Part shown: piece after piece, positions 20,762 through 52,479 of the stretch
Layout of the letters: each line of letters begins with the position of its first letter
Position numbering within the stretch: position 1 is the stretch's first letter
Assembly: GCA_965242925.1 (NCBI GenBank)
Contig: CBDEUM010000013.1
Span: forward strand, 96,001 to 160,000
Length of the DNA: 64,000 bases
Direction of reading: 5' to 3'
Source of the DNA: Roseibacillus sp.
GTDB taxonomy: Bacteria > Verrucomicrobiota > Verrucomicrobiia > Verrucomicrobiales > Akkermansiaceae
The notes under the pieces: model-generated
Told to the model about the DNA's origin: nothing
The model's database searches: none
The model's input: the letters and a program-made list of their open reading frames with translations, nothing else
Program-made: the position numbers and the translations under genes

Positions 20762-22193
20762 CTACGGCCCCGCTGCCGCCTTCCCAAAGAGGGTAAAGCC
20801 GGTGGAATCCTCGATTTTCACCTCGAAAATCTCCCCTGTCATGCGCTCGCGGTCGCCATCGAAAATGACGATCTTGTTTTGGGTGGTGCGCCCGCTCAGG
20901 CGCTCCTTGTTGGTCTTGCTGGGACCCGAGCAGAGGATCTCCTGGCGCGTGCCGATAAGGGCCGCATTCTTGGGGACCGCGATCTCACTCTGGATACGCA
21001 GCAGTTCCTGGTTCCGCTCTTCCTTCAACCGCTCCGGGAGTTGCCCGTCCATCTCAGCCGCAGGCGTGTTCTTCCGCTTGGAGTAACGGAAGATGAAAGC
21101 TGTTGTCGAACTGCAGGCGTTTCATGCAGTCGACCGTAGCCTGGAAGTCCTCTTCCGTTTCGGTCGGGAACCCGACGATAACATCGGTGGTGATTGCCAT
21201 GTTGGAGCGCACCGCCTTCATCTTCTCGCAGATCTCGATGAATTGCTCATTCCTGTAGGGGCGCCGCATCGCCCTGAGGATGCGATCGCTCCCGCTCTGC
21301 ATGGGAAAGTGAATATGCGAACAAAGCTTGGGAAGATAAGTGAAGGCCGCCACCAGATCGTCACGATAGCCGATGGGATGAGGCGAAGTGAAACGAATGC
21401 GTTTGATCCCCTCCACCTCATGAACTGCCTCGAGAAGCTGCACGAAGGGTGACTTGCCCTCGACTTTCCCGAATTCGGTACGCCCGTAGAGGTTCACGAT
21501 CTGCCCCAGGAGAGTCACTTCCTTGGTGCCCTGCTCCGCCAACTGTCTCACCTCCTCCACCACATCCGCAATGGGGCGCCCGCGCTCCTGCCCCCTCGTG
21601 TCGGGCACGATGCAGAAGCTGCAGCGCATGTTGCATCCCTGCATGATGGACACGAAGGCCGAGGGCTTCTTCCCTGCCGCCACATGATCCCGAATGGTGT
21701 TCTGGCTCCCCTCCTCCGCACCGGTATCCACCAGCTTCCCATTCCTGGTTCCTCCGCCCGGGATCCAGATTCCCTCCTCCTCGACGGTATGCCCCTCCAG
21801 GGACATCGAGGGATCATCCATCCTCTCCTCCATCCGTTTGCGCAGGATGTCATCCACGTAGCCAAAGACCCGGTGGTACTTTTGCGTCCCCACTACCAGG
21901 TCGAGATGGGGGACGCGCTCGAAGAGTTCCTCTCCCCGGCTCTGCGCCATGCAACCCATGAAACCGTAAACCACATGGGCCCGCTTCTCACGGTGCTTAC
22001 CCATCATTCCCATCTTGCCCAGGGCCTTCTGCTCAGCCTGGTCGCGCACCGAGCAGGTGTTGACCAGGATGGCATCGGCATCCTCTTCCGCACGGGTGAG
22101 GGTATAGCCTCCCTCCACGAACATCCGAGCAACCTGCTCGGAATCACGCTCGTTCATCTGTCATCCGTAGGTCTTGACGAATACTTTGGGCAC
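20762..22193 (-). CDS. miaB: tRNA i6A37 methylthiotransferase MiaB; in-frame TGA at codon 11 (candidate Sec) and a 1-nt frameshift near 21097
   Basis: GTG-PKVFVKTYG-TGA-QMNERDSE, NTCSVR, GCMAQ, radical SAM CNMRCSFC, RFTSPHP, TTDVIVGFP. The TRAM domain (GRTTQNKIV) is in the shifted frame 20762-21052. Confidence 0.93.
22117..22160 (-). promoter_or_regulatory. putative bacterial SECIS element of miaB
   Basis: After TGA (22163-22161): ATGAAC...TCCGAGCA-GGT-TGCTCGGA-T-GTTCGT, a perfect 8-bp upper stem plus a lower stem. Confidence 0.65.
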
Positions 22194-22352
22194 AACTCTC
22201 CCCGTGCATGCTGACGACGGGGCGGAACCCTTAGCGTCTCTGCCGCAAAAGATCAACCTTCGGCTTCCCTCGGCACCGATTGAAGCCGGAGCCGCAATCC
22301 ATGGCATAAGGAGCTCTTTTTCGGCCCTCCCTCGCCCCGGGTTTCTGCTACA

Positions 22353-23249
22353 GTGGCCGTGTTGGCTCCGCAAATCGACATTTTCATCCTCTACCTCGCC
22401 ACCGAGCGTGGGCTTTCGGATGCTTACCAGCTTTCCGTGCGACGCACCCTGGAGACACTCGCCGACTGGGCCCAGAAGCAGAAATTCGCCACCTGGCAGG
22501 ATCTTGGCATCGATTCTCTCAGGGAATTCCTCGCCCAACTGAAGAAGAAGGGCCTGGAGGCCTCCTCCCTCCGCATCGCAGTGGTTCATATCAAGATCTT
22601 CTTCCGCTTCCTTGCCGGCCGCAGCCTCATCGAGGACGATCCCGCCGAGCCTCTCCTTTCCCCCAGGACTGGAAGTCACCTGCCTGAGACACTTCACGAA
22701 TCCCAGATCGTAAGACTGCTGGAATCCATCGACCCCTCCAGGGCGCTCGGTCGCCGCGACCTCGCCATTTTGGAACTCTTCTACTCCTCCGGCCTGCGCC
22801 TCGCCGAAATCTGCTCCGCCCGATTGGAGACGCTGGACCTCGAGGATGGCTTCCTCAGAGTCACCGGCAAGGGCAACAAGACCCGCATCGTTCCGGTGGG
22901 TGGGCGGGCCCGTTCCGCCCTGGAAAGCTATCTGGCCAACGAGCGCCCCAAGCTTGTCAAGCGCCACACTTCCTCCGAGATCTTCCTCTCCGTGCGCGGC
23001 GGACCACTCGGTCCCGATCGTGTCCGGAAAATTGTGAAGGAACGCGCCCACCAGGCCGGGATCAAACAGAACATCTACCCGCACCTCCTGCGCCACTCCT
23101 TCGCCACCCACCTCCTCCAGAACGGAGCCGACCTGCGGGTGATCCAGGAACTGCTCGGGCACGCCGATATTGCCACCACTCAGATTTATACCCACGTCGA
23201 CGACCAGCTCCTGAGGAAGGTTCACCGCCAATTTCATCCCCGGGCGTGA
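22353..23249 (+). CDS. xerD: chromosomal tyrosine recombinase XerD/XerC type
   Basis: RDLAILELFYSSGLRLAE, GKGNKTRIVP, HLLRHSFATHLL, LLGHADIATTQIYTHV, ends HPRA. XerD versus XerC not resolved. Confidence 0.85.
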   Translation: MAVLAPQIDIFILYLATERGLSDAYQLSVRRTLETLADWAQKQKFATWQDLGIDSLREFLAQLKKKGLEASSLRIAVVHIKIFFRFLAGRSLIEDDPAEPLLSPRTGSHLPETLHESQIVRLLESIDPSRALGRRDLAILELFYSSGLRLAEICSARLETLDLEDGFLRVTGKGNKTRIVPVGGRARSALESYLANERPKLVKRHTSSEIFLSVRGGPLGPDRVRKIVKERAHQAGIKQNIYPHLLRHSFATHLLQNGADLRVIQELLGHADIATTQIYTHVDDQLLRKVHRQFHPRA

Positions 23250-23599
23250 CAGGCCTTTAGCCAGTGCCGGTGGAAACCATCATGGCTGCTCCTTCGTTCC
23301 CCTCGGGCCCTTCTTCCTCCTCGTCCTGCCTTGATCTACAACTCATGGCCGTAGCGGAACACGAACGCAGGGGGAGGGCGAAAGAGATCGCTCCGCTTCA
23401 CCGGTTGTCTGCCTTCCCTCCCGGGCCCTCCACCAGGTTACTGATCCTCCTCCACGAAAGAACCCTGATTGTGTATTCCCAAAGCCTGACGGTGGCCCGT
23501 TCCGTATAAGCCAAAATGGGTATAACTGGCGCCAATTGACCTCCGCGGCCGCTTGCACGGTCACGTGAGAAGATTAGAATAAAATCTCTCCACTTCGCT

Positions 23600-26500
23600 T
23601 TGGAGATTCACCCCATGACCTCCAACCCCCACCGGCCGCTCCTTACCCGGGCAGCGGCACCTCTCTCCCGCCCCCCCGCATGGACCGGTTGGCTCCTGGC
23701 CCTCGTCATGATCTCCCTTCCGGCCGCGGGACAGCTCGTCATTAACGAGATTGTCGCCAACAACAAGAACACGATCGATGATGTGGATGGCGAATCGTCA
23801 GACTGGATCGAGATCCTCAACACCGGATCCCAGCTTAATCTCGGTGGCTACAGCCTGACCGACGACCCGTCCGTGCCCGGGAAGTGGAGCTTCCCGGGAG
23901 GCCAGTTCCTCGGTCCCAACTCCTATCTCGTTGTCTTCGCCTCCGGCAAGGACCGCGCCGTCCTGGGCCAGCAGTTGCACACCAATTTCTCCCTCGAATC
24001 CGACGGCGAGTATCTCGCCCTGTGCGATCCCGGCGGAACCGTGATTCACGAGTTTGCACCGTCCTTCCCCAGCCTCAAACGCGATATCGGGTACGGGATC
24101 GGCAACGACGGAACCCTCGGATATCTCTTCCCTGCCACTCCCAATAGAGCCAATGGAAACCATCTCACTGGATTCGTGGCGGACACGGTCTTCTCTCACC
24201 AGCGCGGGTTCTACGACGATCCCATCGAGGTCATCATCAGCTCCACCACCCCGGGCGTCAGCATCCGTTACACCACGAACGGACGGGAGCCAACCCCCAG
24301 GCATGGACAGATCTATACCCGTCCCGTCACTATCAACTCCACCACCGTCCTGCGCGCGGTGGCCTACAGGCCGGACATGGTTCCCACCAACGTGGACGCC
24401 AAGAGTTACCTCTACAGCCAGGACATTATTGAGCAGAGTGACATGATCGGTTCAGTGGTGAACTCCATAACCTATCGCAACGAGATTCAATCTGCTCTCA
24501 AGGAGATTCCCGTCGTTTCGCTTTCCTTCAATCCGACTGACCTGTTCAGTGCCAGCGGGATCCATAATCTCCCCAATCTCAGCGGCAGCACGAGCGAGCG
24601 CGACGCACACTTCGAGTTCTTTGATCCCTCCAACCCTGACGCCTCGACTCAGGAGCCGGCTGGAATCCGCATCCATGGCGGAAACGCCCGGCGGCACCCC
24701 AAGAAAAACTTCCGGCTCTATTTCCGCTCCGACTACGGCAAGACCCGCCTCGATCACAATCTCTTCCCTGAATCTCCGGTCGACAGCTTCAAGAGCATCC
24801 TTTTGCGTGGTGGGGGCCACGACGCGTGGACCTACCGTGACGACTGGGACAATGCCAGTTTCATCCGGAACGAATTTCTCCACCGCCTGCAGCAGGACAT
24901 GGGGCAGCCTTCCCCCTATGGCCGCATGGTAAGCCTTTTCCTCAACGGCGACTACTGGGGAGTCTACGAGTTGCAGGAATTTCCCCATGAACACTTCAAT
25001 GCCGCCCACCATGGTGGAGACCCGGAAGACTGGGACGTCATCAAGCACGGTGCCGAGGTGGAAGCCGGTGATCTGATCGCCTGGAACGAGTTGATCAACA
25101 TGGCCGAGAACGGTATCGAGTCAGATTCCGACTATGCCGCCATCCAACGGTTCATCGACATCGACAATTTCGCCGATGCGATGATCCACCGCATCTGGTC
25201 CAGCGACGAAGACTGGCTGGCACCTGCCACCCGTAACGGCCAGCCCATCTCCACCTTTTCAGACGACAAGAACTGGTACGTCGCGCGCAGGAGCCGGAAC
25301 GGCGAGGAACCCTTTATCTTCTACAGTTGGGACGCTGAAATGTCGATGGGCATCCCCTTCTCACGCAACGAGGCCACCGGTGGCACCAATCCGCCGAGCT
25401 GGGAGAATGACTTCACCCAGGTGGACAATCCGGATTCGCCCGGCATCATCTACGATGCCCTCCGCCGGCATCCCGAGTTTCAACTCCACTTTGCCGACCG
25501 TCTGCACAAACACATGTTCAACAAGGGGGCTCTGTCCCTGCGACACCTGCAGGGCCTCTGGGATCGCCTGGTAGATACCGTTCACTCCCCCATTGTGGGC
25601 GAATCAGCACGCTGGGGACTCGATAGCTGGACCGGCGCCACCCGACGCTCTCCCTATACCAGGAATACGCAGTGGATCCCCGCAGTCAACTGGGTGCGCT
25701 CCCGGTTTCTCGTCAACCGTAGCACCACCGTCCTCGCTCAATTTAAGGCAGTGGATCTCTATCCCGATGTAGTGGCTCCCAGGCCTTCTCTTCAGGACAC
25801 TCTTTTCCCCTCACCGGTCAACCTTACCCTCACGACCACCTCCCCCGGGTCCAACATCTACCTCACAACGGACGGAGCGGACCCACGGCTCCCGAGCACG
25901 CAGGGGATTGTCTCCTTAGTGACGAGCGACCACCCGGTACAGGCCCATGTGCCCACTCAGGCCAGCAATGCGGAGATCGGAGAGAGCTGGCTCCAGGTCG
26001 CCGACCCCTCCAACATCGACGACTGGGTGACCGGTCCCAACGGAGTCGGTTTCGAGCGGTTCCCCGCCAGCAATCCCAGCTACGACGAACTCATCCAGAC
26101 GGAGCTCACCGACATGTATGGCCTCAACCCGTCCGCCTATATCCGCTACAGGTTCACCATTCCCGACCAGGCCACGATTGACTCCCTCAGCTCGCTCATC
26201 CTGCGCATCCGTTATGACGATGGCTTCGTGGCCTATCTGAATGGCGTCCAGATCGAGTCCCGTAACGTCGGCAATGCTCTCTGGAATTCTGCTGCTTCCA
26301 CAAGTCACCGCGACACCGATGCGTTCAACTACGCGGCATTCGATCGGTCCAGCGATATTCAGTTCCTGCAACCCGGGGAAAATATCCTCGCCATTCACGG
26401 GTTCAATCGCACCTCCGGCAGCAGCGACTTCCTGATCCAGGCCGTACTGGAAGGCGACACAGGCGAACCCGGCGGCACGGTGGCACCCTCTGCCCGGATC

Positions 26501-27547
26501 TACGACGGGGCCATGTCCCTGGACCAGACCACGCGACTCAAGGCCCGTACCCGCCGCGCCGACGGAACCTGGTCGGCCCTTCTCGATATCCTCTACCGGA
26601 TCGGCACCCCGGCCTCCTTCGACAATCTCAGGATCACGGAGATCCACTACCATCCCACCGATCCTGTCACCGAGGCCGAACTGGCTCTTTCTGATTCCGA
26701 CAACGATTTCGAGTTTCTTGAACTGCAGAACGTGAGCGATGGCGACATCGATCTCAGCCTCTGCAGGTTCGACCAGGGAATCGACTTCCAGTTTCAGCCC
26801 GGAACCAATCTTCCAGCAGGTCAGAGGGCACTTCTCGTAAACAACCGGGAAGCCTTCCTCTCCCGTTACGGCCCATCGGTGGAACCTGCTATTTTCGGCG
26901 AATTTGGCAGCAACACCAATCTCTCGAACAAAGGGGAACGCCTCGCCCTGGAGGACGCTCTGGGGGAAAAGATTTTCAGCTTCCCCTACGACGACAAGGC
27001 ACCCTGGCCGATACCGCCCGACGGCGAAGGGCCCAGCCTGGTTCTCGTCGATCCTCTCGGCACCCCGGAGGAGGAATTGGATGAGGGATCCCGCTGGCGA
27101 ACATCCCACCTCGACCACGGCGCACCCGATCTCGACGACGACTGGTCCTACCAGCTCTGGATCCGCGCGTTCTACGGTCCGCTCGCAGCCAGCGATCCCC
27201 TTCTCACTGATCCCCATCTTGTTCCCGGTCCGGGAGGACTCAGCAACTTCATGCTTTACGCCCAGGGCTACGACCTTGGTGCCACTCCAGCCCACCAGTT
27301 GAGCATTGTGGCGGTGGATGACCTCAATGGCTCCGACTACCTGACCCTTACCTATCAGCTGCGGGCCGATCTCGCAGGTGCAACCGTGACGGTCGAGGTG
27401 AGTGAAGACCTCCAGACCTGGAGCCCGGACGTCGCGCTGATCTCAAAGGAGGAAAATGGTGATGGCACCAACACCATCACCGTCCGGGATGCCCAGCCTG
27501 TCAAAGCCGGGAGGGACCGCTACATCCGAGTGCGCATCGGAGAGTAG
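23600..27547 (+). CDS. secreted lamin-tail-domain / CotH-kinase-like / FN3-associated protein
   Basis: INEIVANN...DWIEILN and ITEIHYHP...FEFLEL (LTD); IRYTTNGREP; GGNARRHPKKNFRLYFR and FYSWDAEMS (CotH-like). Confidence 0.85.
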   Translation: MEIHPMTSNPHRPLLTRAAAPLSRPPAWTGWLLALVMISLPAAGQLVINEIVANNKNTIDDVDGESSDWIEILNTGSQLNLGGYSLTDDPSVPGKWSFPGGQFLGPNSYLVVFASGKDRAVLGQQLHTNFSLESDGEYLALCDPGGTVIHEFAPSFPSLKRDIGYGIGNDGTLGYLFPATPNRANGNHLTGFVADTVFSHQRGFYDDPIEVIISSTTPGVSIRYTTNGREPTPRHGQIYTRPVTINSTTVLRAVAYRPDMVPTNVDAKSYLYSQDIIEQSDMIGSVVNSITYRNEIQSALKEIPVVSLSFNPTDLFSASGIHNLPNLSGSTSERDAHFEFFDPSNPDASTQEPAGIRIHGGNARRHPKKNFRLYFRSDYGKTRLDHNLFPESPVDSFKSILLRGGGHDAWTYRDDWDNASFIRNEFLHRLQQDMGQPSPYGRMVSLFLNGDYWGVYELQEFPHEHFNAAHHGGDPEDWDVIKHGAEVEAGDLIAWNELINMAENGIESDSDYAAIQRFIDIDNFADAMIHRIWSSDEDWLAPATRNGQPISTFSDDKNWYVARRSRNGEEPFIFYSWDAEMSMGIPFSRNEATGGTNPPSWENDFTQVDNPDSPGIIYDALRRHPEFQLHFADRLHKHMFNKGALSLRHLQGLWDRLVDTVHSPIVGESARWGLDSWTGATRRSPYTRNTQWIPAVNWVRSRFLVNRSTTVLAQFKAVDLYPDVVAPRPSLQDTLFPSPVNLTLTTTSPGSNIYLTTDGADPRLPSTQGIVSLVTSDHPVQAHVPTQASNAEIGESWLQVADPSNIDDWVTGPNGVGFERFPASNPSYDELIQTELTDMYGLNPSAYIRYRFTIPDQATIDSLSSLILRIRYDDGFVAYLNGVQIESRNVGNALWNSAASTSHRDTDAFNYAAFDRSSDIQFLQPGENILAIHGFNRTSGSSDFLIQAVLEGDTGEPGGTVAPSARIYDGAMSLDQTTRLKARTRRADGTWSALLDILYRIGTPASFDNLRITEIHYHPTDPVTEAELALSDSDNDFEFLELQNVSDGDIDLSLCRFDQGIDFQFQPGTNLPAGQRALLVNNREAFLSRYGPSVEPAIFGEFGSNTNLSNKGERLALEDALGEKIFSFPYDDKAPWPIPPDGEGPSLVLVDPLGTPEEELDEGSRWRTSHLDHGAPDLDDDWSYQLWIRAFYGPLAASDPLLTDPHLVPGPGGLSNFMLYAQGYDLGATPAHQLSIVAVDDLNGSDYLTLTYQLRADLAGATVTVEVSEDLQTWSPDVALISKEENGDGTNTITVRDAQPVKAGRDRYIRVRIGE

Positions 27548-27638
27548 GCGCAGGAATTGTGACCCCTGCCGCACCGAATGACTGTCACCGGTCAAAACCC
27601 GTTGCCACTGCCTGTCGGGGCGGTATGCTGAGGGAGGG

Positions 27639-28586
27639 ATGAGCGAAACACCGGCGGTCCAGGTCAGCAGCCTCGTGAAGGACTTCCGGGGGTCCTTCGG
27701 CCGCGGGATGATCCGAGCCGTGGACGATGTCTCCCTTCAAATCGCCCCTGGCGAGGTTTACGGGCTCATCGGTCCCAACGGTTCGGGGAAGTCGACAACC
27801 ATGAAGGCTCTCCTTGGCCTGGTGACCCCTACCTCCGGCACCTGCGCCATCTTTGGGCGGGACTCTTCCAAGGTGGACTCGCGTCAGGAGGTCGGCTTTC
27901 TGCCCGAGAACCCCTACTTCTATAAACACCTCAACGGTGAAGAGACCATCCGATTCTACGGCAAGCTCTGCGGCATGCGGGGAAGATCCCTCCGGGAGCG
28001 CACCGAGGAACTCCTTGAACTTGTCGACCTGCAGGATGCCCGCAAGCGGCGCCTGGGGGCCTACTCCAAGGGCATGCTCCAGCGCATCGGCCTGGCCCAG
28101 GCCCTGGTGCAGGATCCGCGCCTTCTCATTCTCGACGAACCGACCGCCGGGGTCGATCCCATCGGTTCGCGCCAGATCCGCGACCTCATCTTCAATCTCA
28201 AGGAACGCGGCTTCACCGTCTTCCTCTGCTCCCATCTCCTCGAGCAGGTGCAGGAGGTGTGCGACCGAGTGGGAATCATTCACAAAGGGACCCTCGTGAA
28301 GGAAGGTCGTCTGGAAGAACTCATTTCCATCGAGGACCAGACCGAGATCATCCTGCGCAACGCCACCCCGGATCTCCTTCACAGGATCCACGAACTGGCC
28401 GATCAGGAAGAAGGCGTCGACCTTGTCCGCAGCGGCAACCCCCGCACCACCCTGGAGCGACTGTTCCTCCGCGAAACGGTTCAGCGGGACGCAAAGGCGG
28501 ACCCGGGGAGCGGAACGGGACAGGGAAGTCCGGCGGACGGAGGACCGGACGGATCCAACAGCGACACCGAAAAAGAATCCCCATGA
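27639..28586 (+). CDS. ABC transporter ATP-binding protein
   Basis: [29 protein letters not shown]. Confidence 0.95.
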   Translation: MSETPAVQVSSLVKDFRGSFGRGMIRAVDDVSLQIAPGEVYGLIGPNGSGKSTTMKALLGLVTPTSGTCAIFGRDSSKVDSRQEVGFLPENPYFYKHLNGEETIRFYGKLCGMRGRSLRERTEELLELVDLQDARKRRLGAYSKGMLQRIGLAQALVQDPRLLILDEPTAGVDPIGSRQIRDLIFNLKERGFTVFLCSHLLEQVQEVCDRVGIIHKGTLVKEGRLEELISIEDQTEIILRNATPDLLHRIHELADQEEGVDLVRSGNPRTTLERLFLRETVQRDAKADPGSGTGQGSPADGGPDGSNSDTEKESP

Positions 28587-34508: not shown

Positions 34509-37500
34509 ATGGCGCAAGCAAGACGAAAGGGCATTCGGAACGAGTTATTCCGGCGTGCCATCCGAACCGCAGGTTCTGCCTTCCTCCTTACCATGATGGG
34601 CTGTTCGGACGATTCTGCTGAAAAACACCCACCAGACGAGGCGGATTCACCTGCCGCGGCAGAAAATACGCCCTTTACCTTCAAGGTCCAGAGCGACCGG
34701 GAGCGAGAGGAGCTCGCCCAGCGCGAAAAAGAGTTCGATCCCAGCAACGATGGCTGGGAGAGCGAGGCCTTCCATGGGGAGATCACCTCCCAGCTCAAGT
34801 TGCTGGCAGAATCCCTGTCGTTGGACGAGCCCCCCGGGATTCTCAGCCCGGATGCGGCCTCCTCGATCCTGCGACCCGCCAATCTGGTGCCTGTATTCCA
34901 GCGCCACGGCATGAATATCCTGCGTGCCCCCTCCCCGGCCGACTCTCCTGCCGGCCCCCTCGCGGATCAGCTGAAGGCCCTCGCTGCCTCTCTCCACCGC
35001 GAGGGAGCCGATGTCTCGGTCCGGTTCAAGCAATTCCGCGTCCGTCCCCCGGCAGAGGGTGGAGAGAGTCCCTCAAGCACCGTGCTCTACAAGGCCAGGG
35101 CCTCCAGCCCGTCCGGGGAACGCGTCCAGAACGCCACCTGGGGCATCGAGTGGGTCTACTCCCCTGCCACCTCCACCTACTTGATCAAGACCGTCCGCCC
35201 GAGCGACTTCGAGGAGATCGAGCTGCCGGCTTCTCCGGAGATCGCCACCACCGAGGACACCCATGCGCTCTTCCGGGACCGCACCGGTGATCTCATCGAT
35301 CGCCTCCCGCGGGGCGACTTCATTCACTGGGGTGCCAACGAACTCTCCGTCCGCGGCCTCTACCAGAATGGACGCGCCCTCATTGGACTCGCGGTAGCCG
35401 ACGCCAACGGGGACGGAATCGACGACGTCTTCGCTCCGCAATCCCGAGATCTTCCCAACCTGTTCTTCCTCTCCCAGCCCGATGGAAGTCTCCGGGAAGT
35501 GGCGGCCCGGTCAGGGCTCGACTGGCTGGACGAGACCACTGTCTCGCTCTTCGCCGACTTCGACAACGACGGCGACCAGGACCTCGTCGCGGCAACCCGC
35601 CAGCGTCTTGCCTTTCACGAGAATACCGATGGATCCGGCCTGAATTTCAAGCGGATCCTGGAGCTGCCCCAGAGCGACACCTCCTCCCTCGCAGCTGCCG
35701 ACTATGATGGCGACGGGCTCCTCGATCTTTTCGTGTGCAATTACCTGAGCAGCGTGGGGAATGAGGCGGTCACTCTCTCCGATGCGATCTACAACGCCCT
35801 CGATGGTGGTTCGAACCTGCTCTACCGCAATGAAGGTTCGCTGAAGTTTACCGACGTTACGGAAGCAGTGGGTATGCACGTGGATGCAACCCGGTTGAGC
35901 CTGGCGGCCTCCTGGGAAGATTTCGACAACGACGGGGATGTCGACCTCTACGTGGCCAACGACTTTGGACCGAACTGTCTCTACCGCAACGACAAGGGCA
36001 AGTTCACCCAGATCGCCAAGGAGGTGGGGGCGGACGATCCTTCCTTCGGAATGTCGATCACCTGGGGTGATATCAACCGTGACGGACTGATGGACGCCTG
36101 CATCTCCAACATGTTCTCCGCAGCCGGGAACCGCGTGACCGCCCAGCCCAAGTTCGAACAGGATCTCACCGAGGGACTGGATGCCAAGCGCATCGCCTAC
36201 CTCGCACGTGGCAACACCCTCCTCGTCAACCAGGGTGGAAAACTCTTCCAGGAACGCAGTGCCCAGGCCGGTGTGGTCAACACCCAGTGGACCTGGGGAA
36301 CGCTTTTCGGCGACTTCGACAACAGTGGCGATCTCGACATGATGGCCATGAACGGCTACATCACCGGACCGGTGGTCGATGACTTGTGAAGTTTTTACTG
36401 GCGGCAGGTCCTGCCGGAATCAGGAACAAAGAGTCCCTCGCGCGATCAACTTGAAATCTACCTGCGGGAGGGGCGTTCCCTCAGCGGCCGGGAGCGCAAC
36501 GCCCTCTTCTTCAATACCGGCACCGGAAACAGACGCTTTGCGGACGTGTCATCGATCTCCGGGATCGACCAGGACGGCGATGGGCGCGGCCTCTGCCTCA
36601 CGGACTGGGATGCCGACGGCGACCTCGACGCCTGGGTAAGCAACCGGACGGCCCCCACCATACAGGTCTTCGAAAACCGCTGGGGTTCCCAGGCGGGAGA
36701 TTTCATCGCCCTCAACCTGCAGGGCACCAAGGCTAACCGCGATGCCGCCGGGGCACGCGTGACACTGCTGCTCAAGGGACAGGAACAGGCCCCTCTCACC
36801 CGCACCGTGCATCTCGGGGAAGGGTTCCAGAGCCAGTCCTCCAAGCGCCTGCACTTCGGCCTTGGAAAGAACGCCACGATTTCCTCCGTGACCGTGCGCT
36901 GGCCGGGACCGTCCCATGCCACCGAGACGTTCTCAGGCGTGGAGATCAACAAATTCCACCTCCTGGTGGAGGGCTCCGGCCAGGCCAGGGTCCTGCAACC
37001 CCGGGGAGCCAAGTTCGTGACTCCCGAGAATGCGGTTGTGAAGCCGGAGGAACGGATCAAAAGGCCGGAGAGCAGCAACAGCATCCTGCTCCCCACCCGT
37101 CAGCTCTTCCCCAAACTCCACTATCGTGATCTTGCCACCGGCAAGACCATGATCGGAGCCACTTCCGGCAAACCCACCCTCCTTCTTCTCTGGCACCCGT
37201 CCTGCGCCATGTGTTTCGAGGAACTGTCCATGTTCACCGGGGAAGCCGACAAGATTCGCCGCCTCGGCATTGAGATCCTGGCCACCACGGCCGAACCGGC
37301 GGAGGATGAGGATCCCGATGATGCCGCCAGCATCATCTCCAAGACCGGCTTCCCCTTCACCGTCGGCTTCACCGCCGGGGAAGTGGTCGAACGCATGCTG
37401 GTACTTCACCGTCACCTCTTCTACAGTCCCTACCATCTGAGTGTCCCCACCTCCTTTCTCCTCGACAAGGATGGGCGCATGGCTGCGATCTACCGGGGTG

Positions 37501-38276
37501 CAATCGATCTCAAAGAGTTAGAGGAGCACCTCAAGGCTCTCGCCATCCCCGACAAAGAACTCCTCTCCCGGATCCGCCCCTTCGAGGGTAGCCGGTTCGA
37601 ACCAGCCATGGGGCCGCGGCCCTCGGTCCTCATTAAGACTTACGTCGAAAACCAGATGCCCGACGAAGCCGAGCGCGTCTTCATCGCAAGCATCGAGAAC
37701 GAGTCGATCAGGGACCAGAGCAATGAGATCATGGCCACCCTGGGGCAGAGTTACTTCCTGCAGAAAAAGTTTGCCGAGGCCAAGCCGCTCTTCGAGCAGG
37801 TGGTGAAGCGTGATCCCAGGGACGCCAAGTCCCGTAACACCCTCGCCGCCATCTGCCTGAAGGACGGAAACATGGTCGAGGCCAAGCGTCTGTGGCGGGA
37901 GGCCTCTGACCTCGAGGAGGATTTCTCAGCTCCCCGTTTCAATCTCGGCAAGCAACTCATGAAGGAGCAGCGGACTGCGGAGGCCATGATCCTCTTCCTC
38001 GAATACTGGGTCCTCGAGCCCGATTCCCCGGACGCCCACAATTACCTCTCCATGGGCTACCTCCGTGGTCGTGAGTTCGCCAAGGCCGAGATGCACCTCA
38101 AGCGCCTCATCGAACTGCGCCCCGACGATGGCATCGCCTACACCAACCTGGCCAAGGTCTACCTCGCCCTCCGCAATGTCGCCGCCGCCCGGGACATCAT
38201 CACCCGCGGGCTCCAGATCGAGGGGATCGACCCGCGCAGTCGGCAGGCCCTCCAGCAGTTGAGCGAACGTCTGTGA
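34509..38276 (+). CDS. FG-GAP + ASPIC/UnbV + thioredoxin-like (CxxC) + TPR protein; in-frame TGA at 36387 (candidate Sec627), 1255 aa if read through
   Basis: ORFs 34509-36389 and 36546-38276 share a frame with no other stop between them: DDL*SFYWRQV...GRSLSGRERNALFFN. Also DxDxDGDxD repeats, GEGFQSQS, WHPSCAMC and TPRs. Confidence 0.8.
36390..36426 (+). promoter_or_regulatory. putative SECIS element
   Basis: CGGCAG-GTC-CTGCCG stem-loop (36402-36416) on a CTGG/TCAG lower stem; GGT apex 17 nt after the TGA. Confidence 0.7.
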
Positions 38277-44903: not shown

Positions 44904-44916
44904 AGTTCTAGAAATA
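44895..44916. promoter_or_regulatory. putative ArsR operator overlapping the arsR start codon
   Basis: TATTTC-N10-GAAATA inverted repeat in an AT-rich patch. Confidence 0.6.
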
Positions 44917-45212
44917 CAAAAATATAATCCTGCGGACAAGACTTAATACGGTATCCAGATCGACATTCCACTTGCCGTGAGTTCGCGTGCATTGGCAGAA
45001 AGCGATGCCGCCCCCGGTGAGTGGGATCACAATCAGGCAGGGTCACTCTCCCGGTTCCGCCACCCCTGGCCATCGGGACACACCCTCCACCGCCAGGACT
45101 CCGACTCTCCTCCTCCCCTTGGCAGGATCCCCGCACACCTCCCCTTCCACCTCGGCAACCCCTGCGGATTCTGCTGCTGGCACCAGCACAAATCCTTCCC
45201 GGCATGATGAGA

Positions 45213-48200
45213 TCACCGTGATTGGGCTATCGTCACAATGTTGTCCGTATCTGCCCTGACTTGGTGAGTCGACTCGCTCCCGTCCGGCCAGCGGACCGAA
45301 AGCTCCATATCCCTTCCGGGCCGTGCGAAGCACAGGAGGCCTCCCGAGCGGGTGGAATATCCCCCCCCAACCTGTTGCTCCCGCAATTGATGGCCCAGCC
45401 GGACCCTTGCACCAACCGCTTGCGGGTTGCCCTTGGTTCCCACCAGGCGCACCCTCAGCGGCAGCTTGCCGCCACGACGGAGGAAGGTCATCACGGGCTC
45501 CTCATTGATTCCGAAGACCAGATCCAAACGCCCGTCCGTATTGAGATCCACCACCGAAAGGCTCTTCCCGGCCCCGGGAACCTCGACTCCACTGGCAACA
45601 GGTGCAACAGGAGTAAACTGCCCCCCTCCGTCATTGAGCAGGACCTGGCCCAGGCCGCCGTCCATCCGCCCGGTCTCACGTTGGGGGCTGAAGGAATTCT
45701 GTGCCAGGACGGCGTCAAGGTCTCCGTCTCCATCGAGGTCCTCCAGCACCACACCGTAGGACGGTGCAATCTGTGCGATACGTGGCAGGGAACGCCACGT
45801 GAAGACGGCACTGCCGTCGTTGACCAGGATTCCACTCTCAAGGACATTTGCCTCCCGTCGCAGGGACTTTGACAGCCGGAGATCACTATAGATGTCATCC
45901 AGAACCGCACTGGCAAAGTTGTGGAAGGTCTCTAGTTTCACATCAAGAAAGGGCATCGCGTCGCGCGAACAACTGAAACCCCGCCGGGGAAGAAGGCGGC
46001 CTTCCGTATCATACTTGGCCTCCACGAGGTGGGACTTCCCACTTCCGTCGAGATCGCCGTAGTAGATCAACTCAGGGGATTCCGGGCTCGCCTTGTATTT
46101 TGAGTTCAGGCCGTTGTTGGTCACAAGGTAGTCGAGGTCGCCATCACCATCGATGTCTCCGCCTGCAATCCCGTTCCACCAACCCAGCCGGTCAGCGAGC
46201 TGGGACTCCGCGGTTCGATCGACGAGGACTCCCTCTTCGTTCCGAAAATAGCGCACCGGTCCCCACTCAACAGTAAGCAGAAGGTCACTCCAGCCATCAT
46301 CGTCAACATCCGACCAGAGGGCCCCGGTCACCATCCCGACCTCGTCCGCCCCGGGGAACTGCTCCGGGCCGGCCGGCACGAATGTTCCGTCCGTGTTGAT
46401 GAGCAGGTGACTCGGTGGAGCGAGGGGAAAGCTCCCCGGCACCACCCGCCCTCCAACGAAGAGATCAAGGTCACCGTCCCGGTCAAAGTCTCCCGCCGCC
46501 ACCGGCCCGGAACTGGTGCGAAAATCGGGAAGCGCTCCCTTCCCCGCGGGAGAAAGACCTCCCCGACCGTCGTTAAGATAGAGACGGTCACGATAGCTGA
46601 CGTGACCCTCCGCCTCTTCCACTCCACCACTCGCCACGAAAAGGTCCCGATCGCCGTCGCTGTCCGCGTCAAAGAACAGAGCTCCCAGGTCCTCCGCCCC
46701 GGCATCAGCAGCAAGCGCCTCCACTTCACCGACAGAGAACCGGCCATCACCCCCGTTGAAGTGAATCTGCCCTGGATATCCCCGGGATCCTCCGAGAAAG
46801 AAATCCTCATCCCCATCACCATCGAGATCGCCCCAGGCCACACAGGGACCCTGCTGTGAGAGTTTGTTGGGCAAGAGCGGCTGCCGGGAAAAATCGTCAA
46901 AAGGCTGCTCCCGGTGGATCGCGGTGGAAAGATGATCCGACCGCTCAAACAGGACCGGAAGAGCCGAATCAGCCGGGGGATCCGGCTGCCCGACCGGCTC
47001 GGTAATCAAGTGGTAATGATCAGCCTCGAGATCCGTGAGAAGCTGACGCGTCCCTCCGGGCCAGAGAATCTCGATCCTGTCAATGGTCCTCGCCGATCCC
47101 AACCCGAAGCAGGCGGCGGTATCACTGGCGGAGAGCCAGCCCCGCGCGGCGGTTACGAAGCGGGTCTGCTTACCCATCGCGGTTGTCACCGTAATAGTGG
47201 CTCCCAACCCGTCCCGGTTGCTTGCCCGGCCCATCAATTTGATCACCACACGATGAGTGTCGGCAACCCGGTTGCGATAGAGCGTGACCGGTTCCCCCGC
47301 ATTGCTGACGGCCAGATCCGGATCTCCATCACCATCAAAATCGGCACTGGCAGCACCGAAACTCACGCCAAGATGTTCCAGCCCCCACTCCGCACCGGCT
47401 GATTTGAACTTGAGATCTCCCAGGTTCCGGAAGGCCATGTTCTTTTCCTTCCGCAACGGTTTCTCAAGCCAGAACCTGGCATACTCGGGGGTCCCCGGCT
47501 GCAGGTTCTTCCTGGAATAATCGGAGAGGTCGCTGTTCATGTTGTCGCGCATTACCCCGTTGGTCACGTAGATATCAGCGCGCCCATCCTGGTCGTAGTC
47601 CTCAATACGCGGCGTCCACGTCCAGTCCGTGCTCGCCAGCCCGGCAAGGAAGGCGGCCTCCCGAAACCGTCCTGTGCCTGAGTTGAGGAGCAGCGCATTG
47701 CGCATGTACTGCCGTGGCTCGGGCCACTCAAGGAACCAACCCATGTCGTCCATGTTCCCCATCATCACCTTCTCCCGGTAATGCGAGCTCGCCGACATGT
47801 CGGAAGCGAAGAGATCAAGCAACCCGTCATTGTCGAGATCACCGACATCGCTTCCCATTGAGAACCAGGGCGTATGGGGCACTGCTTCCCTCGCGACATC
47901 CTCAAATGTGCCATCTCCACGGTTACGGTAGAGCATGTCAGGCCCCGTGAAATCGTTGGACACATAGAGGTCCGCGTCTCCATCGGCATCATAGTCAATC
48001 CAGGTAGAGGACAGCGTGAAGTAAGCACCCTTGATCCCCGCCACCCTGGAGACATCAACGAACTGCCCGCCGTCATTACGGAAGAGCCGATCACGCTGCC
48101 CCGCCTCCACACGCTGCGCCTTGTCCCCGGGCTTTATCAGGATTTCCCAGTACTCGCTCAGCTCGGGAATTACCACCGGGATTTCCTTTCCGTCACTCTC

Positions 48201-48911
48201 CCGGGGGACGAACTTCACCCTGAAGTCCGTTCCCGGTGGAGGTGCCACCGCAGTGGTCGCAAGGTAGCCGTCAAGATCGCCGTCATTATCAATATCCGTG
48301 AAGCTCATCATCATGCTCCCGCCATTGAAGTCGAGGCCCACCTCCGCGGCCCGGTCGACAAACCTTCCCGTGCCGTCATTTATGTAGAGCTTGTTGGGCC
48401 GGGTATAGCCACAGGCGTAGAGATCGAGATCTCCGTCATCGTCAATATCGACGAAACTCGCACCGGTTCCCCAGAAGCCCGGATCGGAGACCCCGGACGC
48501 CTTGGTCACATCTTCAAACTTAAATCCTCCCGTGTTTCGGTAGAGCCGGTTGCCCCCCGAGGGACTGGTAATGTAGAGATCCGGCAACCCGTCGCCATCA
48601 TAGTCACCCGCGCAGATCCCCCCGGAGGGATTGAGGAAGATGAACTCCTTGAGGACGCTGGCCGGGTCATCCCAATGCATGCCGTAGTCAATTCCCGTCC
48701 GCCCGGCCGGGAGCGCCTCAAAGAGGGCCTCCCCCTCGGCCCGGACCGCACGGACCGGGAGAGGTCGGGATTCGACGGTCCCTGGTGCCGGGGCCACCCC
48801 ACCGCGATCAGGATCCGGGCCGGCAGATGTTCCTGCCGGTTTGTCGCAACCCGCCACCACGAGCACCAGGGGTATCGCTGCACCAGCAAGCAGGTGGGAA
48901 ATCGGATTCAT
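45213..48911 (-). CDS. CRTAC1-like FG-GAP/ASPIC-UnbV lipoprotein with two beta-propeller sets
   Basis: Lipobox VVAGC, many DxDxDGDxD repeats, SMGSDVGD, STDWTW, NRDGLGA...RGWLSAS. Confidence 0.88.
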   Translation of the reverse strand: MNPISHLLAGAAIPLVLVVAGCDKPAGTSAGPDPDRGGVAPAPGTVESRPLPVRAVRAEGEALFEALPAGRTGIDYGMHWDDPASVLKEFIFLNPSGGICAGDYDGDGLPDLYITSPSGGNRLYRNTGGFKFEDVTKASGVSDPGFWGTGASFVDIDDDGDLDLYACGYTRPNKLYINDGTGRFVDRAAEVGLDFNGGSMMMSFTDIDNDGDLDGYLATTAVAPPPGTDFRVKFVPRESDGKEIPVVIPELSEYWEILIKPGDKAQRVEAGQRDRLFRNDGGQFVDVSRVAGIKGAYFTLSSTWIDYDADGDADLYVSNDFTGPDMLYRNRGDGTFEDVAREAVPHTPWFSMGSDVGDLDNDGLLDLFASDMSASSHYREKVMMGNMDDMGWFLEWPEPRQYMRNALLLNSGTGRFREAAFLAGLASTDWTWTPRIEDYDQDGRADIYVTNGVMRDNMNSDLSDYSRKNLQPGTPEYARFWLEKPLRKEKNMAFRNLGDLKFKSAGAEWGLEHLGVSFGAASADFDGDGDPDLAVSNAGEPVTLYRNRVADTHRVVIKLMGRASNRDGLGATITVTTAMGKQTRFVTAARGWLSASDTAACFGLGSARTIDRIEILWPGGTRQLLTDLEADHYHLITEPVGQPDPPADSALPVLFERSDHLSTAIHREQPFDDFSRQPLLPNKLSQQGPCVAWGDLDGDGDEDFFLGGSRGYPGQIHFNGGDGRFSVGEVEALAADAGAEDLGALFFDADSDGDRDLFVASGGVEEAEGHVSYRDRLYLNDGRGGLSPAGKGALPDFRTSSGPVAAGDFDRDGDLDLFVGGRVVPGSFPLAPPSHLLINTDGTFVPAGPEQFPGADEVGMVTGALWSDVDDDGWSDLLLTVEWGPVRYFRNEEGVLVDRTAESQLADRLGWWNGIAGGDIDGDGDLDYLVTNNGLNSKYKASPESPELIYYGDLDGSGKSHLVEAKYDTEGRLLPRRGFSCSRDAMPFLDVKLETFHNFASAVLDDIYSDLRLSKSLRREANVLESGILVNDGSAVFTWRSLPRIAQIAPSYGVVLEDLDGDGDLDAVLAQNSFSPQRETGRMDGGLGQVLLNDGGGQFTPVAPVASGVEVPGAGKSLSVVDLNTDGRLDLVFGINEEPVMTFLRRGGKLPLRVRLVGTKGNPQAVGARVRLGHQLREQQVGGGYSTRSGGLLCFARPGRDMELSVRWPDGSESTHQVRADTDNIVTIAQSR

Positions 48912-48966
48912 TGCTCTCGTGGAGTGGAGCCTGCCACCCTGTCAGCAGGGTGGCAACCATAGCTGT

Positions 48967-49005
48967 AAAAAGGGCAACACCCGCCACGGAAGATCCGGGC
49001 GGGTG
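48967..49005 (-). terminator. probable intrinsic terminator after the PEP-CTERM gene
   Basis: CACCCGCC/GGCGGGTG stem with inner CGGA/TCCG; T-run follows on the minus strand. Confidence 0.6.
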
Positions 49006-49031
49006 CTGAAAGGAAAAACTGCTGCCTCTCT

Positions 49032-49925
49032 CTACTGAGAGCGGCGCCTCCGGAGGAGAAATGCGAAACCGGTAAGACCCAGCAGACTGAAAACGGCTGG
49101 CTCCGGGATCACACTATCCGCTCCCAGTGCGATACTCGCATCGACAAAGGACTGATCCGCCGCGTTATCCCAGATGCGGAACTCCTCGAAGGTCCCGTCG
49201 AGGGTGCCATCATTGATCCAGGTCGAGCGACCGAGCCAGGTGTTGACATCATTGATGTCCCCCAGAGTCCGAGGGGCAACTCCGTCAACAGTCACGTGCT
49301 CACCATTGCGCCAGTAATTGATGACGCTCTGGGTTCCGTCACCTTCTACCGAAACGGCAAAGTGAAAGATCTCACCAAAGGTGGTATTCAAATTCGAGTC
49401 CAGGGTCGTGACCCCACCGCCGCCCGGATCCTCATTACGCCATTCAATCCGTTGCTGGTTGTAGTTCCCTCCACGGGAAGCCGACAGCATGAGGTAATCG
49501 CGTCCGTCCGTACCGCCGCCGTTGGTATTGCCGGGACCTGTGATCTCACCAGCCGCCGGGTCTCCCTGAGTGCTGCCAATATCGAAAATCCGCGTCCAGC
49601 CTCCACCACCACTTGAGTCAACCGAGACCCAACCTTCAAGAGTCACGGTGGAATGGACCGAGAGCAGGTTATTGGGGAGGTCGCCGTAGGCTGCCCGCCC
49701 GTTCATTGAGTCCCCCCCGGGAAGATCAAGTCCCGTCCCGGTGAAGTTGGCGCCGTCACCCCGGACGAATCCAGTTGCTCCTCCGACAGAATCCACAAAG
49801 GCGGACCCATCGGCAGCTGAGCCCGCAGCTTCGTTGAAGCTCCAGCGATGGATGAGCGCCGAGGATCCCGGAAGGACCGTGCTGGCAAGAAGTGCCAGGG
49901 GAAGGAAATGTCTGTGCGTTTTCAT
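49032..49925 (-). CDS. PEP-CTERM protein with a LamG-like domain
   Basis: Signal peptide, LIHRWSFNE, TLEGWV, WLGRSTW, EEFRIWD; C-terminus IPEPAVFSLLGLTGFAFLLRRRRSQ. Confidence 0.9.
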   Translation of the reverse strand: MKTHRHFLPLALLASTVLPGSSALIHRWSFNEAAGSAADGSAFVDSVGGATGFVRGDGANFTGTGLDLPGGDSMNGRAAYGDLPNNLLSVHSTVTLEGWVSVDSSGGGGWTRIFDIGSTQGDPAAGEITGPGNTNGGGTDGRDYLMLSASRGGNYNQQRIEWRNEDPGGGGVTTLDSNLNTTFGEIFHFAVSVEGDGTQSVINYWRNGEHVTVDGVAPRTLGDINDVNTWLGRSTWINDGTLDGTFEEFRIWDNAADQSFVDASIALGADSVIPEPAVFSLLGLTGFAFLLRRRRSQ

Positions 49926-50028
49926 GATGTATCCTCTGGGCTTATTGCCCAGATGGGACGAATAGCTCATTCCACCAATTTCTCGGACCCAGTCAACAGA
50001 AAATGTAACTCATGCAGTTCTCAGCAAT

Positions 50029-52479
50029 TCATGAACTTTCACTAATGTAATGTAGTTTTTGGGTCTCGAGATTCTCGAGCACCTGGATTTTCCCTGAAGG
50101 CCAGCGGATCGTGAGCCGATCCACTTGCTTGGCCGAACCCAGGCCAAAGTGAATGGAGTTACTGGCCTGGGAGCGGTAGGAATTCACCGGGAATTGATGT
50201 CGCACGATCAGGCGGCCCCCTGCCTCCGCCACCAGGCGGGCGCCGATCCCATGCCGGTTGCTGGTCGTCCCGCGCAAACGAACTGCAACCCAGTTTCCTG
50301 CTGGAAAACGGTTCTCGAATATAAGGACCGCACCTCCTCCCGTCTGGCGCACAATCAGTTCCTGCCGCCCATCTCCCTCAAGATCAGCGGCGACACAGGC
50401 CCGGGCATCTCCATCGCTGTCTGCGCCGGTCAGGTGACTGATCTCAAGGAAGCTCTCTCCTTCCATACTGAGAAAAGCCCGGTTCCTCTCATAGCTGCTC
50501 AGATTATTCTCCCAGTTGATCCTGAAGGGATCCTCCACCCAGAATTCTCCCAATGAAGGATCGGGAGCGCCAGGACAACTGGCAGTAGCTGAGCGGTTAA
50601 ATGGTTGTGACACGACAACCTGCCAGAGACAACTTCAGCCATCGGGCTTGCCCCGTTCCTGGCTGATGAATCCTGCGGTCGCGTAGAGGTCGAGCCAACC
50701 GTCATTGTTGAAGTCCGCCAGGCACGGTCCCCACGCCCATCCAACCGCGTTTACTCCCATCACGGTTCCAACCGGGGAGAATCGTTCTCCTTCCTGCCCG
50801 AGGTAGAGCTGGCTCCCATCAACCAGTCGTTCGAGTTTCCGGACCACCTGCCTGTCATATTCTCCCGGGGGAATATTGCCCATGACCCGCTGCCCGGCCT
50901 TGGAATACATTTCCCCGATATAAAGATCGGAGTAGCCATCGTTGTTGATGTCTCCCGCTGTCATTCCCATTGAACCAAAATCGGTTGGCGCCTCGTTCAG
51001 TTCCTTCCCCTGGAATTGTCCATTCGGACCATTGAGCAGCAGGATTCCATCTCCAAACTCGTCGATTACATAAAGGTCCGGCCTCAGGTCATCGTTTGCA
51101 TGGAACCAAACTGCGTTGCTGGTCGAACGCTGACCGCCATCGAGAGGCGCCCCATTGGTCGCATCCTCAAATTGCCAGCCCCCGACATTCCGCAGCAACT
51201 GGTTGTTGGCCAGCTTGCCTGCCTTGCCGTCAATCCAGGATCCCGATTTGAACCCGCCTCCTGCTCCCCGGGTGACATAGAGGTCGACCTTTCCATCGAG
51301 GTCGTAATCTGCCAGCGAAATCCCGGTGGGTTTCACCTGAGTTTTTTCCAGAACCTGCTCCCGGGTGCTGGTCTTGAATTCTTCCCGCGACATCCCGATC
51401 AGAAAGGAGGTCAGGTTGCTGCGCTCCGTGATGTCCTGAAAAAAACGACCGTTCAGATTACGGTAGAGGCGGTAGCCATCCGGATGGTGGGCAATGCCGT
51501 GGATGAGATCCTCCCAGCCGTCGCCATCCAGATCGACAAAAGCCGCAAAGCCCCCTCCCAGGTGACCACGTATGCCCAGGGCCTGCGTCCCTTCCCGAAA
51601 CAATCCCCGCGGCTGGCCGACGAAAAAGCGTGAACCCCGCATGTCGGTCACGAAGAGGTCATGGCGCCCATCGTTGTTGAAATCACAAAGGTAAACTCCG
51701 CCCGTGTTCATCACCCTCCGGTTACGGGGCTCCTTCCAGTTATCCCAGAAGAGAGCATTGTTGATTCCGCGCCCGGCAGCTACTTCGGTCATGAGAGGCT
51801 CCCTGGCATGCCCAAGCACCGCACGTGTCACATGCATGGAGACAAGCCACCCCGGGGTCGCCAGCCGCTCCTCGTTCAAGGCCGAGACTCCGAACTGAAA
51901 AAAGAGGGTGAGCTCTCCCCGTGATCCTGCCGGACCCTCCGCGAACACCTCGATCTTTCCAGTCCCGGACCAGGGTCCCCCGGGGTTGTCCCGCTCCTCC
52001 GGAGAGAGCGTGATGACATGAGTCCGCAACGTGAGATCGGCGCGCCCGCTCTGATCGAGTTCAGCCAATCTTCCCAGGATCCAGTCGGTAATCCCCTCCC
52101 GCTCGACACGCCGCGATTGACTGCTGCCAACCTCTTCGCGCACCGCAAGGATACCAGCTTGGAAGGATTGGCCTTTTCCGGCAGCTGGATGCAGTCCCTT
52201 GAACCCGGGAGCAAGGATATCAACCAACTTCTGGCGGTTCCGTGACTGCAAGGCTTCTGCAATCTGGGAAAACCCAATCTCCTTCAGGAGATTGGCACGA
52301 TGCTCGGCATCCCATATGTAACTCCGTCCCTCCTCACTGATGAGCCTGGGCGGATCGTCCGGCTCCCGGGCCACGCGATCGCTCTCATCCTTCTCGGAAC
52401 AGGAGCAAAGGAGCAGGGCCACCACCCAGCAGGGTGCTGCCCTTGCCGCGGGGAACTCCGTCATCGGTCCGGGCATCAC
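50029..52479 (-). CDS. FG-GAP + ASPIC/UnbV lipoprotein; in-frame TGA at 50637-50635 (candidate Sec615, U-x-C), 816 aa if read through
   Basis: ORFs 50635-52479 and 50029-50613 share a frame, joined by KPDG*SCLWQVV. Lipobox-like LLLCSC; NLSSYERNRAFL; NRHGIGARL...NSYRSQ...HFGLG. Confidence 0.78.
50603..50634 (-). promoter_or_regulatory. putative SECIS element
   Basis: After the TGA: AGTTGT-CTCT-GGCA-GGT-TGTC-GTGTC-ACAACC. Folds either with a GCAGGT apex or as GGTTGT-CGTGTC-ACAACC. Confidence 0.55.

Follow-up and report, generated by a model that had tools for sequence, protein, structure and literature searches.

The 64,000-nucleotide stretch of Roseibacillus sp. DNA analyzed here (the window; contig CBDEUM010000013.1 of assembly GCA_965242925.1, positions 96,001 to 160,000) harbors three genes that are each interrupted by one in-frame TGA, and all three TGAs are very probably selenocysteine (Sec) codons, decoded via SelB and a downstream selenocysteine insertion sequence (SECIS). 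Site 1 lies in miaB on the minus strand (TGA 22163..22161; context KTYG-U-QMNERD). Site 2 lies in an FG-GAP/UnbV_ASPIC gene on the plus strand (34509..38276; TGA 36387..36389; context VVDDL-U-SFYWRQV), and site 3 in a second FG-GAP/UnbV_ASPIC gene on the minus strand (52479..50029; TGA 50637..50635; context GKPDG-U-SCLWQVV). Translation confirmed the original prediction made on this DNA in that the three TGAs occur at these places with the same protein continuing after each, and the three hairpins it had described downstream, with loop distances of 26, 17 and 14 nucleotides, have the sequences and spacing it gave. Its proposal that UGA is recoded as selenocysteine is supported by the Sec machinery of the genome, the conservation of the TGA, the alternation of TGA with Cys codons (miaB), hairpin covariation and independent contigs (miaB). 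SelB with Sec-tRNA(Sec) would decode the UGA when the ribosome reaches the SECIS hairpin a few codons downstream. The mechanism is the ordinary bacterial one, in two protein families absent from the usual lists.

Profile search of the source genome identified selB (287.5 bits against a cut-off of 242) and selD (366.6 bits), the latter with an in-frame TGA of its own in the context SSCAG-U-ASK. A tRNA-Sec with anticodon UCA was detected by ARAGORN as well as by Rfam (59 bits; gathering score 47). The genome also contains a classic selenoprotein gene, the formate-dehydrogenase-like fdhA (contig C22:63568, plus strand; named from its motif alone), with an in-frame TGA in the context CSRA-U-HAPTVAGL. 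Among the ordinary stops that close frames of at least 200 codons, 3533 were TGA, 1597 TAG and 1074 TAA. TGA is thus the commonest ordinary stop of the source genome, as had been assumed for the DNA outside the three genes, and the codon is not globally reassigned.

The gene at site 1 (20762..22193, minus strand; start GTG at 22193, stop at 20764..20762) encodes MiaB, the tRNA i6A37 C2-methylthiotransferase. It scored 360 bits against TIGR01574 (cut-off 355.3) even without its frameshifted tail, and it comprises the UPF0004 and Radical_SAM domains (Pfam/NCBIfam) followed by a TRAM domain in the shifted frame (20762..21052). It is the single copy in the genome, with one match at E <= 1e-40. The GTG start, 10 codons ahead of the TGA, aligned with an ATG in relatives. 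A 358-codon frame upstream of the TGA that seems to extend miaB proved instead to be a spurious open reading frame (ORF) antisense to a XerC/XerD-type tyrosine recombinase gene (22353..23249, plus strand), which is divergent from miaB.

The UGA is codon 11 of miaB (22161..22163, minus strand) and stands where the N-terminal auxiliary-cluster triad has its first Cys (TYG-C-QMN); it aligned with the Cys of Bacteroides uniformis MiaB (PDB 7mjv) in KLFIETYGCQMN. The three N-terminal Cys of MiaB ligate the auxiliary [4Fe-4S] cluster, according to a review (PMC5372745). The miaB gene of the window encodes two of these Cys and has a UGA at the first position, and the full Cys triad is not present; with the UGA read as Sec, the ligand set would consequently be one Sec and two Cys. 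In this radical-SAM methylthiotransferase, Sec11 would stand in for the first Cys ligand of the auxiliary [4Fe-4S] cluster, and MiaB, the maker of ms2i6A37 in tRNA, would be a selenoprotein with a Se-Fe bond. From the alignment we infer that Sec may be a ligand of the auxiliary cluster.

The codon alternates between TGA and Cys among homologs. A reading of 20 loci gave 12 TGA and 8 Cys at codon 11, and a reading of 34 loci gave 23 TGA and 11 Cys at the exact position; congeners with a match covering the codon comprised 12 with TGA and 6 with TGT or TGC. At the level of the bacterial family, miaB was found in 190 of 201 genomes, and one TGA was present in 71 of the 150 matches listed (41 further matches lie beyond those listed). 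Neither TAA nor TAG replaced the TGA in any of the listed miaB or FG-GAP matches. Among 41 relatives, the TGA form of miaB occurred only in selA-positive genomes, the source genome excepted.

The TGAs could alternatively be genuine stops, with MiaB starting at an ATG two codons further on and retaining two N-terminal cluster Cys, and with each FG-GAP gene being two genes, one for a propeller protein and one for a restarting UnbV/thioredoxin/TPR protein. Gene callers do annotate the genes in this manner. They start Sec-type MiaB at the ATG two codons past the TGA, and among the nearest 120 database MiaB clusters 63 begin MN..., 5 begin further downstream and 52 are Cys forms. However, this ATG belongs to the universal QMN motif that the Cys forms share, and the peptide MP[KR]VFIKTYG, encoded by the 10 codons upstream of the TGA, is preserved through synonymous changes. 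Translation that truly ends at these TGAs is hence regarded as highly improbable, and the FG-GAP family described below provides further grounds for this.

An origin of the TGAs in sequencing or assembly errors, or in recent pseudogenes, has practically no likelihood, even though the source assembly does hold consensus errors. A one-base insertion in a short homopolymer (21094..21097; strand not applicable) splits miaB near its 3' end. The extra base near 21095-21096 was visible on alignment to two congeners, and contigs X2 and X4, which come from two other studies, omit one base at 21095/21096; database proteins of 464 amino acids with 99-100% identity to the miaB product include the TRAM domain. 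The 3' frameshift reflects either a mistake of the assembly or a minor variant. The presence of near-duplicate contig ends, of which one is frameshifted (C28/C37), likewise favors error. Against this, public marine metagenome contigs were compared with the window over 20700-22300, and the miaB Sec codon was identical in the long contigs X2 (2965 nucleotides) and X4 (3483 nucleotides); the contig of X15, an RNA library, also covers the codon without a difference. The miaB TGA, carried by independent contigs, is therefore real. Dozens of other genomes have TGA at the corresponding codons, and each gene is otherwise intact with a single stop, which bears out the earlier argument that random error is an unlikely cause. 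In the X4 sample, another contig diverges exactly at the Sec codon (22160) and reads the Cys codon TGC there, with a diverged but related N-terminal sequence upstream; a Cys-type relative thus coexists with the Sec type.

The SECIS candidate of miaB is a two-part hairpin (22117..22153, minus strand), delineated by fold and covariation, with the upper stem UCCGAGCA / UGCUCGGA and a GGU loop whose GGU lies at nucleotides 30-32 from the U of UGA. It is part of the minimum-energy fold (-19.7 kcal/mol, z = -2.8), and 1 of 200 shuffled sequences folds as well. Across 20 distinct Sec forms, 90.7% of the cells were paired as compared with 28-39% when the 3' partners were slid, and one compensatory exchange (C-G to U-A) was observed. 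The GGU was present in 23/23 Sec forms, whereas 4 of the 11 Cys forms had AGU, and 90.6% of the upper helix was paired in Sec forms versus 72.7% in Cys forms. An A>G substitution at 22128 (plus strand), found in the contigs of X1 and X15 and in most congeners, changes an A-U pair of the upper stem to an A.C mismatch; the stem therefore tolerates one mismatch.

The site-2 gene (34509..38276, plus strand) encodes 1255 residues when the TGA is read through, comprising an FG-GAP propeller, UnbV_ASPIC, a thioredoxin-like (AhpC-TSA) domain and TPR (Pfam). Its UGA (36387..36389) is residue 627 in the conserved family motif DL-U-SFYWRQV, and a CxxC (C-A-M-C, residues 899-902; 37203..37214) is present in the thioredoxin-like domain. 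The site-3 gene (50029..52479, minus strand) encodes 816 residues on read-through, again with an FG-GAP propeller and UnbV_ASPIC. Its UGA (50635..50637) is residue 615 in the motif DG-U-S-C-LWQVV, aligned among orthologs, with a Cys two residues on (50629..50631) that forms a UxC. Pfam scores for the site-2 and site-3 proteins were 124 and 112 bits for PF13517 (FG-GAP_3) and 65.5 and 64.4 bits for PF07593 (UnbV_ASPIC), respectively. PF00578 (AhpC-TSA) matched the site-2 protein at 27.9 bits (cut-off 26) with the CxxC intact; the site-3 protein has no such domain. The site-2 protein, judged by eye from a lipobox-like N-terminus, appears to be exported, and the site-3 protein is also predicted to be exported.

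Orthologs of the site-3 gene at 97, 94, 64 and 51% identity each contain one TGA, and its U-[SP]-C is preserved in two relatives (G014 and G037) and in one metagenome-assembled genome (MAG) record. A search with this gene against 41 related genomes gave 541 matches in 26 genomes. Among the best 150 of these, 146 had exactly one TGA, 4 had none, and TAA or TAG was never seen. The source genome alone has 13 FG-GAP TGA sites, which represent 11 distinct genes, two being near-duplicates on other contigs; all the sites fall in the loop motif D-L-U-S-F-[FY]-W-R-Q-V-V between the propeller and the UnbV domain, and most of the 11 genes have lipobox-like N-termini as judged by eye. The near-identical pairs (C12:51079 / C17:49805 and C28:4493 / C37:896, the C37 copy being frameshifted 53 codons past the TGA) suggest heterogeneous strains or redundancy among the contigs of the bin, for which contamination is given as 3.18%. 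Named records with the TGA form bear the labels Verrucomicrobiales, Roseibacillus, Akkermansiaceae, Acidobacteria, Pyrinomonadaceae, Phycisphaerae, Pirellulaceae and, in one MAG, Dehalococcoidia. A pattern search returned 80 loci in which 9 TGA forms and 1 Cys form had the motif; because Cys occupied the Sec position of its second pattern, the search was biased against TGA, and the counts give no frequency.

The reading as genuine stops finds some support here as well, since about 38 database proteins of 690-880 amino acids begin 20-30 residues past the FG-GAP TGA. However, the peptide is conserved in frame on either side of the TGA, and SFFWRQVV, the most conserved stretch of the region, follows the TGA directly in frame, upstream of any called restart. 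The interruption is always TGA, never TAA or TAG, in the 146 of the 150 listed matches that have one, and the downstream halves would be without a signal peptide. A third FG-GAP/UnbV_ASPIC paralog (45213..48911, minus strand; 1232 amino acids) neighbors the site-3 gene; it has no TGA, and the entire Sec loop is deleted. Between the two lies a 312-amino-acid ORF (49032-49970) with no Pfam match.

The SECIS candidate of site 2 (36402..36416, plus strand), CGGCA(G)-G(G)UC(C)-UGCCG, has its GGU at nucleotides 21-23 from the U of UGA and was defined by the minimum-energy fold and the family alignment. The hairpin common to the family, GCGRCA-GGUCG-UGUCGC after the TGA, has its GGU at the same place. 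The alignment of 23 sequences (from the source genome, relatives and named genome records) included 4 in a one-base-shifted register, which were scored as unpaired; even so counted, 78.3% of cells were paired (reached in 0/500 shuffles), and the covariation score was 0.181 versus 0.094 (0/500 shuffles). The pair 18-28, which joins the wobble base of the Arg codon with the first base of the codon after VV, occurs in all six standard pair types.

The frequency of such hairpins by chance was estimated as that of a GGT-led loop closed by at least 5 base pairs, 8-34 nucleotides past a stop. A hairpin of this kind followed 0.36-1.0% of the stops ending frames of at least 200 codons, and 13 of 2199 TGAs with fewer than 60 open codons downstream. 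In view of this low background, hairpins 1 and 2 are above chance, and the rarity after ordinary stops that had been expected holds for them; hairpin 3, as originally drawn, is not above chance. A crude genome scan (GGT-apex hairpin plus third-position GC content, GC3) retrieved 9 FG-GAP sites and fdhA, missed miaB, selD and site 3, and is no census. The Sec codon of selD is followed by CGCGCA-GGUCC-UGCGCG (GGU at nucleotides 36-38 from the U of UGA) and that of fdhA by GUCGCC-GGUCU-GGCGGC (nucleotides 22-24). The GGU(C) loop is a general bacterial SelB-type loop: besides selD and fdhA, it is found downstream of FG-GAP TGAs in Planctomycetota- and Acidobacteriota-labelled records, so that the organism-specific SECIS of the original prediction must be given up.

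It might also be argued that near-cognate or suppressor decoding places a standard amino acid (Cys, Trp, Gly or Arg) at the UGA, the hairpin merely stimulating the event and selenium playing no part. The FG-GAP position does tolerate many residues in sense-codon homologs. Yet genomes with TGA forms have selA, selB, selD and tRNA-Sec. In the source genome, selD and fdhA share the loop motif and its spacing, and TGA otherwise serves as the principal stop; at the miaB position, no alternative other than Cys was seen. Read-through of this kind is considered very unlikely.

Several observations weigh against the reading of the three TGAs as Sec codons, or against parts of the evidence for it. With respect to the machinery, whose presence the original prediction had made its first test, selB, selD and tRNA-Sec are accounted for, and selA gave no match to TIGR00474 or PF03841 in the source assembly (89.87% complete, 42 contigs). 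As selA was found in 18 of 19 congeners and was absent only from the source genome and one 70%-complete genome, the missing selA is read as a gap of the assembly. The covariation of the miaB hairpin is modest, with 13-15 of 500 shuffles attaining the observed values, owing to the 90% likeness of the sequences, and its lower helix, no less conserved in Cys forms, says little. Hairpin 2, present in the minimum-energy fold, is thermodynamically unexceptional (z = -0.14). The hairpin first proposed for site 3, GGCA-GGU-UGUC, has 4 base pairs including a G.U, lies outside the minimum-energy fold (z = -0.04) and falls short of 5 base pairs; it is weak, and a different stem is probable. The likelier SECIS of site 3, GGUUGU-CGUGUC-ACAACC (50603..50620, minus strand; nucleotides 18-35 from the U of UGA), emerged as the RNAalifold consensus of 4 orthologs, among which pair 20-33 is U-A, U.G, C-G and G/A (broken). 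Coming from four sequences, this stem may be taken as a lead.

A control at the peptide level points in both directions. Metagenome contigs were scanned blindly for sequences that encode FFWRQVV, which gave at least 120 loci; two codons upstream of the first Phe, 21 of those listed had TGA and 99 a sense codon. Among the loci listed, a stem of at least 5 base pairs in the fixed register was present in 19/21 TGA forms versus 3/99 sense forms, the other 2 TGA forms having 6-10-bp stems in a different register. Without regard to register, stems of at least 5 base pairs were present in 21/21 TGA forms and 54/86 sense forms, and the median energies were -9.3 and -8.7 kcal/mol, respectively; neither measure separated the two groups. 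It is therefore uniform position and sequence, and not stability, that mark the TGA forms. Several sense forms, the commonest residue being Asn, bear a comparable stem-loop such as TGGCGGC-AGGTG-GTCGCCA, perhaps the relic of a SECIS or a pre-adaptation to one.

The residues found in place of Sec also weigh on the negative side for the FG-GAP family. Some 39 full-length database homologs that have the motif carry S, A, G, E, D, Y, N, R, Q or M there, and not one of them carries Cys; among the metagenome loci listed, the 99 sense forms had N in 40 (mostly AAC), S in 18, A in 14, G in 7 and C in 2. Two clear FG-GAP Cys forms were encountered (L069 and L160), both of a divergent subfamily without the WRQVV motif. 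The TGA/Cys pairing foreseen for homologs is thus clear in miaB and weak in the FG-GAP family.

Sec in the FG-GAP family is associated with the CxxC of the thioredoxin-like domain. In Sec-type C-terminal database fragments the CxxC, mostly as WASWCxxC, was kept in 38/38, as against 4/39 sense-codon forms; other sense forms had SxxC, AxxC or SxxS, or the thioredoxin-like domain was absent. Within the source genome, CxxC is present in 8 of the 11 Sec genes, and both Sec paralogs that have no thioredoxin-like domain, the site-3 gene included, have U-S-C. One Sec paralog (C22:99699) has neither CxxC nor UxC, which is a further point on the negative side. The pattern fits the loss of a Sec-thiol redox couple as a unit, and such a loss would account for the arbitrary residues of non-Sec homologs. 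The FG-GAP Sec would be a redox-active residue recycled by a thiol partner. For Sec627 of site 2, the proposed partner is the CxxC of the fused thioredoxin-like domain; at site 3, where this domain is absent, the Cys two residues downstream (U-S-C) may take its place.

Alternatively, Sec may be inserted in the FG-GAP proteins and yet stand outside any Sec-thiol relay, either binding a metal or being simply a tolerated residue, with its origin in a WRQVVS coding sequence that by chance folds like a SECIS. The variability of the position in sense forms, almost never Cys, together with the similar hairpin of some sense forms and the one Sec paralog without a partner Cys motif, would be compatible with this. 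Such a role is rather unlikely, as the TGA is kept across paralogs of ~30% identity and several labelled phyla despite single-base changes being able to convert it to tolerated residues, and as Sec and CxxC are retained or lost jointly, with UxC in the forms that have no thioredoxin-like domain. The redox couple remains the favored role of the FG-GAP Sec.

The three genes resemble selenoprotein genes of the E. coli fdhF type, in which an in-frame UGA is likewise followed within a few codons by a hairpin with GGU at its apex and the machinery genes are present; the host proteins are different. The likeness to the E. coli fdhF element itself is presumed from the apex quoted for it. Cys-type MiaB (TIGR01574; structures 7mjv-7mjz) has UPF0004, radical-SAM, TRAM and CxxxCxxC in common with the protein described here, which keeps two Cys of the N-terminal triad; the first ligand of the triad is Cys there and UGA-encoded here. 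CRTAC1 / ASPIC-UnbV proteins without Sec (NCBI 'CRTAC1 family protein') share FG-GAP_3 and UnbV_ASPIC, and many have the same thioredoxin-like and TPR tail and the DLxSFFWRQVV loop; they differ in that the Sec position has a sense codon (S, A, G, N, E and others) and the first Cys of the CxxC is mostly lost.

The original prediction had placed all these proteins outside the classic Sec set. FG-GAP/ASPIC candidates had already been published: Table S9 of Kim et al. (2016, PLoS One; PMC4807772) includes four ASPIC/UnbV FG-GAP candidates, their genes split in two by UGA, with bSECISearch positive for 3 of the 4 and a closest match with G at the homologous residue. The paper does no more than list these candidates in the supplement; the 11-gene expansion, the distribution over phyla, the motif and hairpin conserved in the family and the connection with CxxC are not described there. 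Judged by title and abstract, and with supplements and subscription journals outside the coverage, the literature yielded no Sec-containing MiaB and no UnbV/FG-GAP/CRTAC1 selenoproteins beyond those of Kim et al. Of the two families, MiaB alone appears to lack a published precedent. Elsewhere in the interval, a large secreted-looking protein with Lamin-tail, CotH kinase and chitobiase C-terminal domains is encoded at 23600-27547 (plus strand) and is unrelated to the Sec finding.

The MiaB case is the more surprising chemically and the propeller case the larger genomically. Taken together, they raise the possibility, offered tentatively and with more doubt than confidence, that marine Verrucomicrobia of the Akkermansiaceae type depend on selenium twice: through a Sec-ligated [4Fe-4S] cluster in the sulfur-inserting site of their sole MiaB, and through a battery of a dozen or more lipoprotein propellers with Sec wired to CxxC or a vicinal Cys, in which Sec would have arisen at a tolerant non-Cys loop because the neighboring coding sequence already folded like a SECIS. 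If this is true, tRNA ms2i6A37 modification, and hence the decoding of UNN codons, would be tied to selenium supply, and the propellers would constitute an extracytoplasmic selenium-based redox system for an external substrate. Annotation consistently presents the members of both families as truncated or split genes, an error that affects pseudogene counts and selenoproteome surveys. With the propeller family, the selenoproteomes of bacteria from several phyla would grow by many genes per genome, and the Sec-CxxC pair would be the first mechanistic handle on CRTAC1/ASPIC-UnbV proteins, the function of which is obscure. If the auxiliary cluster of MiaB does have a Sec ligand, it would provide a natural experiment in Fe-S/Se chemistry. 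With the UGA form of MiaB present in about half of the species listed for the bacterial family, Sec-MiaB would connect the fidelity of translation to selenium nutrition among abundant marine bacteria.

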